From the UHGV virus genome UHGV-0210683: a DNA stretch of 40,225 nt; one strand, 5' to 3'. Position 1 is the stretch's first letter; the number at the start of each line of letters is the position of its first letter. Under the pieces are notes generated by a model. The model had not been told where the DNA came from, ran no database searches, and saw only the letters and a list, made by a program, of their open reading frames with translations. The DNA is from a virus. This document shows positions 5,315 through 40,225 of this stretch, one piece after another. The position numbers and the translations under genes were made by a program.

Positions 5315-5326
5315 GAGGCAAGACCA

Positions 5327-5638
5327 ATGACCAAATCAAAGACCAAAGCAGAACAGCAATGGCTGTCGGATGTGGCCGAACTCGGCTGTATCTGCTGCCG
5401 TAACATGGGGTACGGGGCATCCCGTGCAGAACTGCATCATGTGAGAAACGGGCAGGGTATGGGACAAAGGGCGGATCATTATTCCGTACTCCCTTTATGT
5501 CCGCAGCACCACTGGGCATGTTACGAAACGGGATTCCATGCAGCCCCTGCAACATGGCAGCAGATCCACGGCAGCGAACGTGAATTACTGGAGCAGGTAA
5601 TACAGGAAGTCAGGGAGCTGCGAGCATGCCGAGTATGA
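5327..5638 (+). CDS. Ref-like (recombination enhancement) HNH/Zn-finger nuclease
   Basis: GCICC...AELHH...G.G.RA....VLPLCPQHH pattern. Confidence 0.75.
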   Translation: MTKSKTKAEQQWLSDVAELGCICCRNMGYGASRAELHHVRNGQGMGQRADHYSVLPLCPQHHWACYETGFHAAPATWQQIHGSERELLEQVIQEVRELRACRV

Positions 5639-7974: not shown

Positions 7975-8113
7975 TTGTCCGCTGCCGGTTATTCCTGACG
8001 AACTGACCTATGGCGGCGCAATCCTGTTGTTGGCTGATGCTATGAAGTCGATCGCAGACTGCAATCACGATAAGCGGGCAATACGGGAGATAGAAGCGGA
8101 GAGAGCGAAGTGA
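7820..8113 (+). CDS. o-spanin (Rz1-like lipoprotein)
   Basis: Overlaps Rz in another frame; lipobox LLGS-C; Pro-rich VPAPVVPIPP..CPLP. Start placed at ATG 7820. Confidence 0.8.
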   Translation: MSKLKPLSERSLKTVSALLLLFPLVLLGSCSNTKETFVPAPVVPIPPQLTADCPLPVIPDELTYGGAILLLADAMKSIADCNHDKRAIREIEAERAK

Positions 8114-8565
8114 CAGACGCGGCATTAGTTTTAAGGCCAGTTTCGCTGAGGGCAGCTAATGAGTACATCTCTGACAATCATCGCCACCATGGAAGATGCC
8201 AGGGGTATAAGTTCGCCATCGGCCTTTTTAATGGTACCGGCAATATGGTTGGTGTCGCAGTCGTAGGCCGACCGGTAAGCCGTATCCTTGATGACGGGGT
8301 CTCAGCTGAAGTTACCAGACTGTGCACTGACGGAAGTCGAAATGCATGCTCTAAGTTATATTCGGCGGCCTGGAGGGCAGCAAAAGCCATGGGATACCGA
8401 AGGATGTTCACATATACACTGGCGTCGGAAACCGGAGTTAGCCTGAAGGCGTCAGGATGGCGTAAAGACACCCGGGTAAATGGTCGCTCATGGGATACCC
8501 CATCACGGAGAAGGACCGATAAGCACCCAACTGAAGATAAACAAAGGTGGGTTGTCATTGCTTAA
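8110..8565 (+). CDS. XF1762-family protein (Mom/GNAT-like)
   Basis: LRPVSL..AN.YI..HRHH, EVTRLCTDG..NACS.LY, TYTL..E.G.SLKASGW motifs. Confidence 0.7.
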   Translation: MTDAALVLRPVSLRAANEYISDNHRHHGRCQGYKFAIGLFNGTGNMVGVAVVGRPVSRILDDGVSAEVTRLCTDGSRNACSKLYSAAWRAAKAMGYRRMFTYTLASETGVSLKASGWRKDTRVNGRSWDTPSRRRTDKHPTEDKQRWVVIA

Positions 8566-31066: not shown

Positions 31067-31285
31067 TTACATAGCCCCGAAGTCAGGTTCTTCTGATACC
31101 GGTAATGTCTGCCGTTTAGCCAGCGGGCTATTAAAATGCGCCCAGGTTGTTTTTGGATATCCGTCCGGCCGCTTTATAAAAAAGATACCGGCACGCTCCA
31201 GGGCTTCGCACTGTTTTGACGGGAATTGATAGCCGGTCAGTTCTATCATTTCGTCCGGGGTAATTACGTCACTCTCGTTTTTCAT
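31067..31285 (-). CDS. Excisionase (DUF4224-type)
   Basis: IT.DE..ELTGY..PSKQC..L...GIFF..RPDG.P; directly upstream of int. Confidence 0.8.
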   Translation of the reverse strand: MKNESDVITPDEMIELTGYQFPSKQCEALERAGIFFIKRPDGYPKTTWAHFNSPLAKRQTLPVSEEPDFGAM

Positions 31286-31448
31286 TTTGGTCTTGCCTCA
31301 TCATCAATAAAATAAGAAGGTCAGCCGTATCGCATGAGCGTTTAATATCTGCCGGAGTGCATGATCTGTTTTTTACACTCGCAGCCAGGCGGCCTAATTT
31401 AATATCAAAGTCGGTCAGTAATTGTTGTCCTGGTTGCCACGGTTCCAT
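31269..31448 (-). CDS. Small hypothetical protein (59 aa), not in the ORF track
   Basis: MEPWQPGQQLLTDFDIKLGRLAASV...; GGGG RBS; overlaps the xis start. Confidence 0.55.
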   Translation of the reverse strand: MEPWQPGQQLLTDFDIKLGRLAASVKNRSCTPADIKRSCDTADLLILLMMRQDQNEKRE

Positions 31449-31518: not shown

Positions 31519-31707
31519 TCAACTTTTTGTCTGAGAAAAATCGGCCGAGATAATTTCATCAATCAGATAGCACTCTGAAAAAATACCCTTCACGGTCAGT
31601 GTTTCTTTATCCATCAGACAATTTTGCTCATCCGGATAAACGTAGCCGTAGGGCTGATATTCGCAGCTGGTGGCAGAGCAAATCAGCATGAATAATCCGT
31701 ATATCAT
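31519..31707 (-). CDS. Small Cys-containing protein (DUF1482/YebW-like)
   Basis: Hydrophobic N-terminus, C....C, VYPDEQNCL. Confidence 0.6.
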   Translation of the reverse strand: MIYGLFMLICSATSCEYQPYGYVYPDEQNCLMDKETLTVKGIFSECYLIDEIISADFSQTKS

Positions 31708-31871
31708 TTGCTTTCATCCTTCTGCTGCGGCTCGTTACGGGCCTCAATTTTCACCTGTGGAGGCAGGTCGTAATACACATCACACCGGCGGTCTGTATGG
31801 ATGTAGCCGTGACTGCCGTCAGGGAACGTGAGCTTTACCGGCCGGTCTTTGTAGTGTTGGTGTTTTAGCAT
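31704..31871 (-). CDS. 55-aa CsrA-like (carbon storage regulator fold) protein, not in the ORF track
   Basis: MLKHQHYKDRPVKLTFPDGSHGYIHTDRRCDVYYDLPPQVKIEARNE: ML start, alternating beta pattern and a D-x-P-x-x-V-x-I end resembling CsrA (NAPKEVSV). ATGA coupling to the next gene. Confidence 0.55.
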   Translation of the reverse strand: MLKHQHYKDRPVKLTFPDGSHGYIHTDRRCDVYYDLPPQVKIEARNEPQQKDESK

Positions 31872-31901
31872 TGGTCTGCCTTATCGTGACATGTCACGCT
31901 G

Positions 31902-31936: not shown

Positions 31937-32434
31937 TTACCGGACCATCAGTGAACGTTCACCAATTTCAATATGAGCACCGGGAACTTCAATACCATTT
32001 TCCAGCGCTTCTTTGATGGCTTTTTTATCCGGTGACACAATGGTTTGTACATCAACGAGTTCGTTAGGAAGCAGGGATTCATCATCAATGACAATTGACG
32101 CCCGGCCTTTCACTGCAGTGAATGTGTTTTTCACTGTTTTCAGTTTGTCCTGGCCAGATGCCAGTAAGCAGGTCAGTGCATATTTTTTCAGATCCTTGGC
32201 CTGACGCTTAAATGACTTTTCACGATCCGCCAGGCGTTTGGCTTCTTCACCCAGAGTATTTGCCTGCCCTTCAAGGTTACGGACGTGGATCATAATCGCG
32301 TCCAGTTTATCGCCGAGTGCGCCCTCGATACCTTCCAGGGTGTCGGCTATTTCTTCCGGGGTGAATTCACCGGTCTCTACCAGTCGTTGCAGCTTTTCAT
32401 AGTCTGCGGCTAATGCAATTGCGGTTGTGCTCAT
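31937..32434 (-). CDS. Siphovirus Gp157-family protein
   Basis: DTLE.IEG...DK, E.KRL..R, PDKKAIKEAL..G.EVPGA motifs. Confidence 0.85.
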   Translation of the reverse strand: MSTTAIALAADYEKLQRLVETGEFTPEEIADTLEGIEGALGDKLDAIMIHVRNLEGQANTLGEEAKRLADREKSFKRQAKDLKKYALTCLLASGQDKLKTVKNTFTAVKGRASIVIDDESLLPNELVDVQTIVSPDKKAIKEALENGIEVPGAHIEIGERSLMVR

Positions 32435-34428
32435 TGGTCTGCCTCTTGTTTTTCAGTCAGTGCGGTTAAACATTCATCTTCAATAGCTTTCAGGCGGCGC
32501 AGGCGGCCTTCGAGGTATTTCTGATATTCTTTATCGCCACGGGATTTTGCATTATTAACATGTACGGAAATCTCCCGTGACAAGGTGGATGCAATACCAC
32601 GCAGCTCATTGGTCGTGACTGCCGTCCGCATGGTTTCCGTGTTGCGTTTGAATTTATCGTCCAGTTCCTCGCGGAGACGGACGATATCATCGGCGTTATC
32701 GCTGGCCGCCTTAATTTCAAACTCCATTTTATTTTTGATGAGATATTCAGGGTTATCGTGCATACCCATGAACACATCAGAAGAGAACCCGAGCATTGAC
32801 AGTGCTTTTTTAATCGCGTCTGTCAGTGATTTTTTTATGACCTCACTATCAACTTTTATGCCGTATTGGGTCTGATAGCGGTATGGTGTCGCGCCGTAGC
32901 TTTCAAAATAACAGCACTTGCCATCTTTACTGCGGTACCAAAACTGGATTTTTATTGAATGATTTTGCTCGCAGAACAGAGAACCGTCTGCGTCACGCAG
33001 GTAACGCAGAGCAACCTGTTTGTTGTTTTCCAGAACAGGTTCAGTCAGCGGTTTGCCGTCTAGGAATTTTTCTTCAACCACCTCATAGCCCCAACCTTCA
33101 CCGATCGGTCCGAAAATTTCGGTAGCACGCATAAACATGTAGTTACTGTTAATGCTGGTACCCTGAAATCCCGCGCCCTCTAAAGGCTTGGTAAAGCGTG
33201 GATCTGTGCGCTGTACCTGCTTCCAGATACTCAGATTGTCCGTGTCTGCCAGAACCTCGGCAATCACTTCGGCGCGGCTGCGGAAGTCATCAGTAGCTGG
33301 TTCCTCGGCATGAGCCGGTTCCGGTGTTTGGGCTATGGTAGTCGGTTCATCGTTGGCCGCTACTTCCGGAGCTGGTTTCTCTGCCGGTTTATCTGCTTTT
33401 TTAGTACGTGTGCGCTTGGTCTTTTCCTGCTTTGCTGCTACGGGTGGTTTATCTTCCGTAATATCCGGACCGGACCGGCCTGTTTCCTGGTCATGACTGC
33501 TTTCTGCCGGCGTTATGCCGATACGGTCAGCCACAAACTGTTTACGGGCTGCCGCATCGCTTATCAGGTCAGGTAATTCTTTTCCTTCACGTACGACAGC
33601 AAAGACTGTTTCACGCGGGATCTGCAATGCGGTCGGGATAATACGGAACTCAGTAGACCAGCGCCGCCAGCTTTCATCTTCATCACTGATCAGCTTTTTT
33701 GCAGCGGTAAGTTTGCTTGGCTGAATTTCCCATGGGTCAAAATTACCGGGAAGAAGGGCGAGGGCTATTTCCTGATCCAGTGTCGCGTAATTATGTTCAA
33801 AATTACGTTGCTTTTGCTCCGGGACAGGGAGTTGCCCGGTGGCCGGTTCTGCAGGGAACAGGTATTCTTCTGCCAGCTTCTGTGCTTCTGCTTCGGTAAT
33901 ACCATCCTGAGCTTTTTCCAGAACAGTATTTACCAGCGCTTCTAAATCCTGTTCATTCAGCAGGGAAACCGTGCGTGTGGCCGCGATACCTTTTGCAATA
34001 TTCCGGATCTGCGGGTATTCATCACTTTCGTGAACAAAATCGACCGCTTTGCGGTACTCATTGCGGGTAAATTGTGTTTTTTCATACAGCATGATTGCCG
34101 CAATACGAACGACTGGCGCCGTTTTTGCAAACACTACCATTTCTTCTTCACGTTTCTGCCAGTCGGTACCGTTGAACTCGTACTCTTTGGCAAAATGTTC
34201 ATCAAAACTATCGCCGGCCGGTGCTGGTTTGCCTGCCTGAGCTTCGCAGATTATTGGTGCCGACACATCAAACTTTCCTGTATTTTCAGGATAAGTTTCC
34301 TCCAGCATCACGGTGGCCATTGCTCTGGCCATCTTCTCGGAATTGGCGGAAATCGTGATTGCAACAGTCACAGCACCGTCTTTAAGTGCCGCATCTATGG
34401 GATTAAATGCACAGATATAATTGGTCAT
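32431..34428 (-). CDS. Large recombination protein: RecE-N-terminal-like region plus C-terminal Rad52/Sak-like annealing domain
   Basis: C-terminal TDPRFTK, ATEIFGPIGEGWGY, KKSLTDAIKKALSMLGFSSDVFMG; central TLDQEIALALLPG. Confidence 0.7.
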   Translation of the reverse strand: MTNYICAFNPIDAALKDGAVTVAITISANSEKMARAMATVMLEETYPENTGKFDVSAPIICEAQAGKPAPAGDSFDEHFAKEYEFNGTDWQKREEEMVVFAKTAPVVRIAAIMLYEKTQFTRNEYRKAVDFVHESDEYPQIRNIAKGIAATRTVSLLNEQDLEALVNTVLEKAQDGITEAEAQKLAEEYLFPAEPATGQLPVPEQKQRNFEHNYATLDQEIALALLPGNFDPWEIQPSKLTAAKKLISDEDESWRRWSTEFRIIPTALQIPRETVFAVVREGKELPDLISDAAARKQFVADRIGITPAESSHDQETGRSGPDITEDKPPVAAKQEKTKRTRTKKADKPAEKPAPEVAANDEPTTIAQTPEPAHAEEPATDDFRSRAEVIAEVLADTDNLSIWKQVQRTDPRFTKPLEGAGFQGTSINSNYMFMRATEIFGPIGEGWGYEVVEEKFLDGKPLTEPVLENNKQVALRYLRDADGSLFCEQNHSIKIQFWYRSKDGKCCYFESYGATPYRYQTQYGIKVDSEVIKKSLTDAIKKALSMLGFSSDVFMGMHDNPEYLIKNKMEFEIKAASDNADDIVRLREELDDKFKRNTETMRTAVTTNELRGIASTLSREISVHVNNAKSRGDKEYQKYLEGRLRRLKAIEDECLTALTEKQEADQ

Positions 34429-34443
34429 TGGTCTTGCCTCTGG

Positions 34444-34815
34444 TCAGTAAGGTAATGCTTCGTCGTCTTTGGAGATAACTTCACCCTCCAGGCATAGCAG
34501 TGCCTGTATCTGGTCTTCCAGTAATCTGGTTTTGGCAGTTGCATCTGCAAGGATCTGATTTTGCTCTGCCCGTAAACTGTTAATTTCGGCCTGAACTAAA
34601 TCAGATTTACTGACTGAAGGGTCGGGTAATTCAAACTGGTGTTCGGCAACGGGGAAGCCCATACCGTCAGTCGCTTTGAATTTGTGGGTGAATACTGAAT
34701 ACGCGATACTTCCGTCAAACCGTTTTTGTGCATGGACGTAAAGCGTGACTTTGAGGAGGTTAGGTTGTGCTTTCATAGCAACTCCTTTAAAATGATGTTT
34801 CCAATGATTCGTCAT
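34444..34815 (-). CDS. Hypothetical protein, first pL gene (two in-frame starts: 34815 and 34776)
   Basis: ATG 34815 is preceded by GAGGCAAGACCA and ATG 34776 by AAGGAG; C-terminal coiled coil. Confidence 0.7.
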   Translation of the reverse strand: MTNHWKHHFKGVAMKAQPNLLKVTLYVHAQKRFDGSIAYSVFTHKFKATDGMGFPVAEHQFELPDPSVSKSDLVQAEINSLRAEQNQILADATAKTRLLEDQIQALLCLEGEVISKDDEALPY

Positions 34816-34886
34816 TGGTCTTGCCTCTTCTGACGGTTGGTCCCGTCAGTGGAACTCCGGATTAGCTTTGGTCGGCGACTCCGGGT

Positions 34887-34914
34887 AAAAGAGCCCACTT
34901 CGGTGGGTTTTTTT
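34887..34914. terminator. Bidirectional terminator in the pL leader (tL1-like)
   Basis: AAAAGAGCCCAC-TTCG-GTGGGTTTTTTT. Confidence 0.75.
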
Positions 34915-35054
34915 ACGTCTGAAATAAGGTGCCCGTCTTTCCGGGCTGTCAGGTCGCCTTGCCTCTTCTGCCATCTTCGTGGCGTTATTTGTTTCCTGGT
35001 GCTGCCGTAAAACTGTGAACGTTTATCCTGAATACCCGCTGTGGGGTTTTGATG
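34887..35054 (-). ncRNA. Candidate ~165-nt pL leader sRNA
   Basis: Bounded by pL and the terminator. Contains a 19-nt antisense to 4685-4703 and a boxB-like GCCCG-GAAAGA-CGGGC hairpin (34931-34946). Confidence 0.5.
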
Positions 35055-35060
35055 ACATAA

Positions 35061-35102
35061 ATATTAGCAATGCTATTTTTATTATGCAATAGCAATGCTA
35101 AT
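35061..35102 (-). promoter_or_regulatory. pL promoter with operators OL1/OL2
   Basis: TTGCAT-17 bp-TAATAT on the minus strand; palindromes ATTAGCAATGCTATT (35063-35077) and AATAGCAATGCTAAT (35088-35102). Confidence 0.8.
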
Positions 35103-35112
35103 TATTTAAGGC

Positions 35113-35139
35113 AAAAAAAACGCCACGATAATAGCGGCG
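35113..35139 (-). terminator. cI terminator
   Basis: CGCCGC-loop-GTGGCG-TTTTTTTT on the minus strand. Confidence 0.7.
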
Positions 35140-35160
35140 CTCATTAAGGGGTTGATTTAC

Positions 35161-35913
35161 TTATGCAAAGTCAATCATTCTAATGGGGAGGGATTTTATA
35201 ACTTTTCCGATTATGCGCAGATCATGGGTTTCATTTTCTTCAATGTAAAACGTTTCGTAAGCTTCATTATCAGATTTCACTGCGAGCCTGCGACCTTTTA
35301 CGCGCTGTAATCTTTTAATAAATAATGAATTTTCAAAGGTAAAAACATAAATACCATCACTGTCAAAAAAAGAGTTATGGGTGTCAACAAATACAACATC
35401 TTTTGGGTTGATAGCTGGCGACATGCTATCCCCACTGATGTTGATCATCTCTATACCTTTCAAGTTTCTTCTCCCAAAGAGTTCAAAAACTTTTTCTGGT
35501 GAAAACTCTATTGATTTTATCGTGTCAGGGAAATCAGCATTAATAAAGCCGCCGGGACCAGCTTTAGCATATACATCCATAAGCCTTAATGTATTGATCT
35601 CATTGCTTGTGATGGCATTTGTCTGATGGGCTGAATTAGTGTCGGATGTAGTTCTTATGTGTTCAAGCAAAGGACCTATTTCCGGATTTATTTCCTCAGG
35701 TTGAACCTGAAGCAAAGCAGAAAATTTCAATACGGTATCCGTGTTTAGTGCTGTTCTTGCATTTAAATACTGGCTGACCGCCGCTTGTGTATTAAACCCA
35801 AGAGCATCCGCAGCTTTTTCCTGAGTTAAGCCGAGGGATTCACGCTTTGCTTCCCAGATTGCTCGCAATCTTTGCGCTGCGCTTTTGTCTGTATCGGATA
35901 TTTTTCTGTTCAT
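35161..35913 (-). CDS. cI: CI-like repressor (HTH plus S24 autopeptidase)
   Basis: LTQEKAADALGFNTQAAVSQYLN HTH, AG cleavage site, GDSM.P serine and IKRL lysine. Confidence 0.93.
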   Translation of the reverse strand: MNRKISDTDKSAAQRLRAIWEAKRESLGLTQEKAADALGFNTQAAVSQYLNARTALNTDTVLKFSALLQVQPEEINPEIGPLLEHIRTTSDTNSAHQTNAITSNEINTLRLMDVYAKAGPGGFINADFPDTIKSIEFSPEKVFELFGRRNLKGIEMINISGDSMSPAINPKDVVFVDTHNSFFDSDGIYVFTFENSLFIKRLQRVKGRRLAVKSDNEAYETFYIEENETHDLRIIGKVIKSLPIRMIDFA

Positions 35914-36763: not shown

Positions 36764-36780
36764 GAAAGAGGCAAAGACCA

Positions 36781-37005
36781 ATGCTGAATACAACCGAAAA
36801 AATCACCTACCGCAACGGATTTATGCATAACGGCGACCCGACGGACATTGAAACAATACGGCCAATTTTTGAGGGACGACGTGCTGCGGCTCTCAGTGTC
36901 TGGGAACAGTACGAGCAGATGAAAGCAAAATTACTGCAGCGCAATCTGACCCCTGAACAGTATCAGAACGCATGCCGCGATATTGCCAGAGCACTGGGGG
37001 TGTGA
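36781..37005 (+). CDS. Hypothetical protein
   Basis: GAGGCAAAGACCA-ATG start; LTPEQYQ.ACR.IA.ALGV. Confidence 0.7.
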   Translation: MLNTTEKITYRNGFMHNGDPTDIETIRPIFEGRRAAALSVWEQYEQMKAKLLQRNLTPEQYQNACRDIARALGV

Positions 37006-39796: not shown

Positions 39797-39816
39797 GACC
39801 AACAGAGGCAAAGACC

Positions 39817-39993
39817 ATGATAATCAAAGACCCTGTTACGTGCGAATCTCTCGTGCGTGATAACTATCCCCGCATGCCGGATGATGGCTGTGACCATACC
39901 AACCGTCACTTAGACCGGCTGCATGCCGCGCGCCGTGCCCGGAAAAAAATCCCGTATCAGTCTGCCCCTGAACCAAAGAAACAGGGGGTGTGA
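39817..39993 (+). CDS. Small hypothetical protein (58 aa), not in the ORF track
   Basis: GAGGCAAAGACC-ATG start; MIIKDPVTCESLVRDNYPRMPDDG... Confidence 0.6.
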   Translation: MIIKDPVTCESLVRDNYPRMPDDGCDHTNRHLDRLHAARRARKKIPYQSAPEPKKQGV

Positions 39994-39995
39994 GC

Positions 39996-40225
39996 ATGTC
40001 CGGACAATCAAATTATTTACCTGCAGGTCTGCCTCACAATCGCGCACTGTGGCCTGCTGAGTATCAGGAAAAAGAGCAGCTTGATTTGGCTGCCAGCCGC
40101 CTGATTAAACAGCTCAGAATGCAGAAAATACACAGAACGACTGTACTGGTGGCTATCGAAAAAACACCGGCGGATCAGCAAATGTTTTTCCGGGAGCGCC
40201 TGAACTACTGGCAGGGGGTAATTAA
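39996..40225 (+). CDS. Hypothetical protein (77 aa if circular; stop at positions 2-4)
   Basis: Open to the window end; ...ATT AA|G TGA when joined to position 1, giving a GTGA overlap with the first gene. Confidence 0.65.
   Translation, partial: MSGQSNYLPAGLPHNRALWPAEYQEKEQLDLAASRLIKQLRMQKIHRTTVLVAIEKTPADQQMFFRERLNYWQGVI

Follow-up and report, generated by a model that had tools for sequence, protein, structure and literature searches.

The prophage and its early region

The window, i.e., the complete 40,225-nucleotide stretch of virus genome UHGV-0210683 that was analysed, is a lambdoid prophage record with a cI-like gene (35161-35913) and with cro-like, cII-like, and replication genes to the right of it. 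The leftward operon consists, in this order, of a 110-aa gene, an exonuclease gene, a Gam-like gene, three small genes, and the excisionase and integrase genes. The operator-like sites at the inferred pL promoter and at pR comprise three exact copies, and their count when two mismatches are allowed is at chance level. The closest named relative found was in Morganella psychrotolerans (91% for the 55-aa protein), and a Morganella host is therefore assumed. Elsewhere, the window encodes a fused C5-cytosine and Dam-type adenine methyltransferase (474-2603), a Mom-family gene after the lysis genes (8110-8565), and, at its end, a DNA polymerase III theta-like gene (39996-40223).

The leader of the pL transcript contains the elements that are central to this study, which are collected in Table 1 together with the short sequence tags found at early-gene starts. 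Two further minus-strand features were observed in this leader. Directly before the terminator, a conserved hairpin (GCCCG-GAAAGA-CGGGC, 34931-34946) is found that we take to resemble a boxB-type site; its GGAAAGAC core is present in 62 of the 79 distinct upstream leaders, some of which carry a duplicate, and no N-like gene was identified alongside it. Moreover, a 42-codon Arg-rich open reading frame (34846-34974) that had no PHROG match begins just before the ninth, partial site and spans the terminator and hairpin 2.

Table 1. Positions of the predicted RNA unit, the tags, and the operator-like sites in the window
Feature	Position	Strand	Remark
Predicted -10 box (TAAAAT) of the small RNA	34788..34793	+	conserved in homologues
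Predicted IsrB-like small RNA, ~115 nt	34800..34914	+	5' end placed from the -10 box
5' hairpin, covering the 5' portion of the anti-tag, rich in G·U pairs in relatives	34801..34818	+	17 distinct stems
Anti-tag CATTGGTCTTGCCTCT	34813..34828	+	anti-SD half largely unpaired
Hairpin 1, loop UUGGUC at 34837-34842	34830..34849	+	13 distinct fully paired stems
Hairpin 2, loop UUGGUC at 34868-34873	34857..34884	+	portion common to Salmonella IsrB
Intrinsic terminator-like hairpin, UUCG loop, U7 tail	34891..34914	+	U4 tail, weaker, on the minus strand
First (cis) tag copy	34813..34828	-	its ATG (34815) shares the frame of the 110-aa gene
Tag, start of 665-aa exonuclease gene	34426..34441	-	18-nt complement
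Tag, start of 165-aa Gp157/Gam-like gene	32432..32444	-	
Tag, start of 55-aa gene (phrog_2482)	31869..31881	-	
Tag, start of excisionase gene	31283..31298	-	
Tag, start of 74-aa gene between cII-like and replication genes	36769..36783	+	
Tag, start of 58-aa gene after dnaB-like gene	39806..39819	+	
Tag, start of 103-aa HNH/Ref-like nuclease gene just before Q	5316..5329	+	18-nt complement
Ninth, partial site in pL leader, upstream of terminator, no start codon	34958..34970	-	13-nt RNA complement
Two operator-like palindromes at the inferred pL promoter	35065..35100	-	matching sites 35951 and 35976 (pR)

Hairpins and putative expression signals of the RNA unit

The initial annotation had proposed two tandem hairpins that display GACCAA in their loops on the minus (pL) strand, followed by a third GACCAA. 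Hairpin 1 was found to be the perfect 7-bp stem described, with a loop that reads GACCAA on the minus strand and UUGGUC on the plus strand, and the third GACCAA was located at 34815-34820. Hairpin 2 was likewise found at the position given; the minus strand forms an 8-nt loop (CGACCAAA) on a weak stem of 5 bp, a 3x3 internal loop, and 2 bp, while the plus strand has an extra U·G pair and a UUGGUC hexaloop. Two plus-strand elements had been overlooked, i.e., the 5' hairpin and the -10 box.

The T, A, A, and T positions of the -10 box are invariant among 27 aligned homologues. The box types among 49 distinct RNA units, extracted with a pattern that demanded such a -10 box, were TAAAAT (33 units), TATACT (10), TATATT (5), and TATAAT (1); the extraction of 55 distinct leaders from 433 loci did not include this demand. 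The promoter scan output of the window did not contain the -10 box, no convincing -35 box was found for a plus-strand RNA, and the terminator scan reported solely the minus-strand reading of 34891-34914.

Probable assignment of the hairpins to the plus strand

Folding z-scores for positions 34810-34890 are modest (-2.48 on the minus and -1.58 on the plus strand), and those obtained with the terminator included are similar for the two strands (-4.21 and -4.86, respectively); window folding alone is therefore neutral with respect to strand. The distribution of wobble pairs in relatives was determined by a strand-neutral walk, in which G·U and A·C were scored alike, over the 49 distinct units (from 227 loci). 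The ratio of G·U pairs on the plus versus the minus strand was 42:0 in the 5' hairpin (17 distinct stems), 11:2 in hairpin 1 (13 distinct stems, all of which remain paired), and 4:0 and 6:0 in the two stems of hairpin 2, counts that are not independent events because related stems share changes. Covariation analysis of 27 sequences, with a structure that leaves out hairpin 1, showed 99.4% of the cells to be paired and two-sided changes in 8 of the 20 pairs, a level reached in 1 of 500 shuffles. The hairpins noticed initially are real and show covariation among homologous leaders.

The plus-strand wobble pairs, the conserved -10 box, and the U7 tail together therefore predict a plus-strand RNA of approximately 115 nt. 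On these sequence-based grounds, the hairpins most likely reside on the plus strand, within a small RNA that is antisense to the pL transcript. The four RNA runs considered consist of contigs that carry neither strand nor transcript-end information.

Tags at the starts of early genes

Besides the hairpins, the initial annotation had referred to eight ribosome-binding-site elements, and eight tagged start codons were recovered with the pattern AGGCA(1-3)GACCA(1-4)TG, which has 8 matches in the window versus a mean of 0.01 in 100 Markov controls. All eight full tags end in ATG, and GACCAA by itself occurs in the window at chance level (20 copies versus 22.0 expected). The suggestion that a plus-strand RNA would be antisense to all eight elements is supported with the qualification that the 15-mer complement is perfect for three of the eight, and that the other five have shorter complements or bulges of 1-2 nt. 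The ATG of the first tag opens a 4-codon open reading frame in Proteus and Providencia types and is missing in Yersinia types and in L040, so that it is not conserved as a gene start, and this cis copy therefore looks like the template of the anti-tag. Of the 79 distinct upstream leaders, 28 contain tag-like sites and 23 contain complements of hairpin 2.

When pairing with the anti-tag was calculated for 56 starts, the eight tagged starts ranked 1-8 (-29.4 to -19.8 kcal/mol, the next start being at -16.5), a ranking that is partly circular, as the 16-nt anti-tag was defined from the tagged sites. The cost of opening was estimated at about 9.7 kcal/mol for the 5' hairpin and 3.7 for the anti-SD half, and the predicted net binding at the seven distant sites amounts to -6 to -22 kcal/mol, with the 55-aa gene scoring no better than untagged genes. 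The tag of the Gam-like gene is degenerate in most Proteus types, which counts against the antisense reading. G·U-compatible tag variants were seen (GATCAA, GAGGTAAG, and GGGGCAAG), with too few unconstrained positions to be discriminating. Among the matches listed, literature on the motif strings concerned unrelated work only, and no description of the tag system was found in the open-access literature searched.

Concerted changes of tags and anti-tags in related phages

In five Dickeya-type loci, an A is found at tag position 8 in 14 of 14 distinct tags, compared to 1 of 97 elsewhere, and the RNA and its hairpin-1 loop change together with the tags. A hairpin 2 plus terminator pattern matched 21 of 401 genomes (none with the reversed control), and 20 wider IsrB-like regions were collected, 18 of which were analysed (L535 and L536 were left out), with new tag codes being predicted from the anti-tag of each relative. 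Tags that match the phage's own RNA were present at gene starts in 9 of the 18 loci, and the other nine have no tags. Five codes are distributed over nine loci, with 4-6 own-code copies each, cis copy included; a sixth code is found in L523, where the complement at a start codon is 23 nt long, and L526 and L527 have a code version that contains an internal mismatch. In eight loci, 2-8 copies of the phage's own code directly precede an ATG, versus 0 in 30 controls for each. The code matrix contained a single off-diagonal match, located away from any start, and the mean duplex energy was best on the diagonal for five of the six RNAs. Complementarity between tags and anti-tags reaches 16-23 nt, thereby extending into the flanks and the second codons. 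Moreover, one genome (G003) contains two prophages (L223 and L533) with the same kind of RNA unit and different codes.

Several observations count against this pattern or limit its weight. The window RNA pairs with neighbours of Dickeya-type sites as well as some own-code partners pair with each other, the Dickeya-type anti-tag binds the window tags as well as its own through G·U pairing (-24.0 versus -23.8), each code switch is a single lineage event, and the permutation of flank covariation is weak and not independent (86/2000). In addition, the hairpin-1 loop of L504 fits its own tags in a 4-nt core only. Hairpin 2 is unchanged in the Dickeya-type phages and lost in L466, and its loop is retained in Gifsy-1 and in eight Gifsy-type loci that have no tags; this loop may therefore have another role. 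Specificity seems to reside in the 5' anti-tag, and the UUGGUC loops may contact the ACCAA core or the leader sites, or bind something else.

Relationship with IsrB

No Rfam family was matched at cut-off in the whole window. An E-value search (E<=10) of positions 34400-35200 yielded isrB (RF01386) at 34828-34913 on the plus strand, with 31.9 bits (E 9e-4), which is below the gathering cut-off of 35. C4-type matches were absent both at cut-off in the window and at E<=10 in 34400-35200, and a match to rsmX (E 0.076) was dropped as it was mostly due to the terminator. L514, which has the same architecture, clears the RF01386 cut-off at 40.9 bits, and L507 and L515 were not listed. In 151 genomes, the RF01386 search matched the centre genome alone, and a search with model R1 returned chiefly terminator-level noise, plus four strong matches; model R1 picks up the IsrB of Gifsy-1 at E 0.0075, a score at which other terminators do no worse. 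Blastn against annotated phages gave five short matches only, all terminator-level.

The architecture supports kinship, as the window RNA contains a GCUUUGGUCGG-bearing hairpin followed by a terminator, as in IsrB, and the RNA unit lies antisense within the early-left operon of a lambdoid prophage, as IsrB does. IsrB-1 and IsrB-2, from Salmonella Gifsy-2 and Gifsy-1, respectively, are RNAs of 88 and 94 nt that are encoded antisense between sbcA and the preceding gene and are induced by starvation (PMC2330248). Like the window RNA, they are encoded opposite the early-left operon, close to the exonuclease gene, and they share with it the hairpin-2 loop, the terminator, and a similar size. The window RNA differs in having two additional 5' hairpins and the anti-tag, and in being located one gene further upstream of the exonuclease gene; in contrast to the window, Gifsy-1 has no tags at its gene starts, and 25 starts checked there contained no convincing site for IsrB. 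On the basis of these sequence features, the predicted RNA is an enlarged close relative of Gifsy IsrB, not a formal member of RF01386. Expression of IsrB in a lysogen has been reported (bioRxiv 10.1101/787010), and isrB-1 is represented by 4 versus 2 reads in an Hfq table (PMC2515195). No target or mechanism of IsrB was found in the text consulted.

Two further sites were noted in Gifsy-type loci. In Gifsy-1 (L127:41645-41680), a degenerate two-part site before the first leftward gene forms the most favorable duplex with the IsrB loop, albeit a weak one (-15.3 kcal/mol). The tagless loci L519, L521, L529, and L530 have in common a stretch of 12-14 nt that is complementary to the 5' end predicted for their own RNA; it lies in a separate GC-rich hairpin of the pR strand, 3.7-8.5 kb from the RNA unit and away from any start codon.

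A model for tag recognition and its alternatives

The combined observations make it probable that an IsrB-like plus-strand RNA of approximately 115 nt pairs through its 5' part with the tags, which cover the Shine-Dalgarno sequence and start codon of eight early genes, and thereby blocks translation of these genes. A plus-strand C4-like antisense RNA had initially been put forward as the second option, and it gains support from the conserved promoter box, the structure, the similarity to IsrB, and the co-switching of tag and anti-tag. Like Gifsy IsrB, the predicted RNA would be produced in the lysogen. Pairing with a tag would begin at the unpaired anti-SD stretch of the RNA, after which the tag would invade the 5' hairpin, weakened by its G·U pairs, to form 13-18 bp; additional contacts with the ACCAA core would come from the UUGGUC loops. 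Leaky pL and pR transcripts of xis, the exonuclease, Gam-like, and HNH genes, and three small genes would be silenced in this way. When the prophage is induced, the RNA would be titrated by convergent transcription from pL and by the leader, which is fully complementary to it, and the block would be lifted. Because the tag and its mirror in the RNA covary in related phages, one RNA likely keeps eight genes untranslated.

Three alternatives deserve consideration. The plus-strand RNA could act in cis only, on the pL leader (through termination, processing, or control of the first gene), with the tags being recombination copies of a strong ribosome-binding site. The occurrence of Gifsy-type IsrB without tags, the complementary sites in the leader upstream of the terminator, and the normal SD and spacing within the tag are all consistent with this explanation. 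It is nevertheless improbable, since the tags are confined to early-gene starts, in both operons and up to several kb away, and, in six codes, have been altered in parallel with the RNA, spacer and second-codon letters included.

Alternatively, RNA-tag pairing could have an outcome other than guarding lysogeny, for instance by guiding a protein or nuclease or by timing expression in the lytic cycle. Under such a scheme, proteins could bind the loops that stay invariant irrespective of the code. We consider this still less probable, as pairing across the SD and AUG normally blocks initiation, and IsrB has been seen in uninduced lysogens in the material available.

The third alternative elaborates on the architecture emphasized by the initial annotation, a sponge of the CsrB/RsmZ type in which a phage protein, e.g., the 55-aa product, binds GACCAA in mRNA, with the leader hairpins as high-affinity or sponge sites and the plus-strand RNA as a secondary matter. 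In CsrB/RsmZ a repeated motif is likewise found in loops and at ribosome-binding sites; however, those loops carry the same motif as the mRNA, whereas the window loops are complementary to the mRNA motif, and in comparison with CsrB/RsmZ and CsrA/RsmA no GGA loops and no CsrA homologue were found here. CsrA homologues are known from phages and are of importance for plaque size in PTXU04 (PMC11879866). The 55-aa family looks CsrA-like by eye, its model is five-stranded and all-beta (pLDDT 78), and 14% of the members of an Atlas neighbour cluster at 0.83 belong to PF02599, which is a lead only. Moreover, the 55-aa gene carries a tag nearly always, additional GACCA motifs are present on the mRNA strand, both in leaders and ahead of this gene, 2 of the 13 hairpin-1 wobble pairs favor the minus strand, and L223 has a minus-strand hairpin (CCCCG-GACCAA-CGGGG) before the 55-aa gene.

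Against these points, a profile comparison by hhalign between the 55-aa protein and CsrA (24-30 sequences) reached a probability of 0.2%, and reversed controls scored higher. The gene is absent from the leader-to-integrase region in L251 (and the overlapping L320), L523, L526, L527, and L533, all of which have kept the tags and the RNA unit, and the variable spacer and flanks agree letter for letter with each phage's own RNA. The L251 record is 64% complete, and the search there gave a 15-residue, 12.7-bit match only; G003, which holds L533, has a copy of the 55-aa gene in its other prophage. The 55-aa protein had no Pfam match, and Bap repeats were the sole matches among PDB sequences; its model had no Foldseek match at E<=0.001 in the PDB and viral libraries and a best Z of 4.8 in VIA, without a CsrA row. 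A missing fold match is compatible with a CsrA fold, and a monomer model of an intertwined dimer may mislead. The wobble pairs favoring the plus strand, the lack of detectable CsrA homology of the candidate protein, and the five tagged loci without this candidate reader speak against the sponge, of which the minus-strand GACCAA loops were the initial basis; this explanation is the least probable of the three, and it is unlikely that the 55-aa protein reads the tags. Antitermination of the N/boxB or put type was rejected, as the hairpins were not encountered a second time in the pR leader and the evidence on strand runs in the opposite direction.

The 55-aa family (phrog_2482; 31704-31871 on the minus strand of the window) is found in prophages of Morganellaceae, Yersinia, Serratia, and Dickeya, with more divergent members at the same position in L040, L524, L525, and L532. 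Directly upstream of the tag of this gene, a small mRNA-strand hairpin is present in the Yersinia-type loci L223 (9965-9982), L224, and L221, with GACCAA, GATCAA, or AATCAA as the loop.

Comparison with known systems and implications

Satellite phage P4 has RNA-based immunity, and there, as here, complementary sites flank the RNA gene in an early leader. The comparison with P4 CI that was suggested initially fits less well than that with C4, because CI RNA is processed from its targets' own strand and brings about termination, whereas the RNA here is antisense and most of its sites cover start codons. Processing of CI RNA is cited in PMC5499578. Closest in its presumed working is C4 of P1/P7, a phage RNA that pairs around a ribosome-binding site, stops translation, and sets heteroimmunity (PMC12197685, the main text of which does not mention IsrB). 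As in these systems, exposed RNA segments that are complementary to ribosome-binding sites and vary between phages were found here. C4 controls one operon (ant) and is processed by RNase P (PMC5499578), in contrast to the window RNA, which has its own predicted promoter and eight dispersed early-gene targets. Finally, the Start Associated Sequences of Cluster K mycobacteriophages and Cluster EF Microbacterium phages are unusually conserved 13-bp tags at the ribosome-binding sites of about ten genes, with an unclear role (PMC7302621). They are unrelated to the window tags in sequence and hosts, and antisense RNA is not mentioned in the available text of PMC7302621.

The targets of known phage antisense RNAs, such as C4, lie in a single operon, whereas an apparently purpose-built regulon of tagged starts extends across both early operons here, and the natural code variants constitute ready-made compensatory mutants. 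Antisense RNAs are worth seeking behind other unexplained start-associated phage motifs as well. If the proposed model is correct, the switch between lysis and lysogeny in lambdoid prophages of Morganella, Proteus, Providencia, Xenorhabdus, Yersinia, and Dickeya-type hosts has an additional, post-transcriptional layer, the function of the orphan IsrB family becomes testable, and natural orthogonal RNA-RBS pairs become available. More tentatively, and with the odds somewhat against it, the RNA and its private tags could form a second, RNA-based immunity layer in which diverged, orthogonal codes spare co-resident prophages and silence superinfecting phages of the same code; if this were true, the IsrB family would gain a function.
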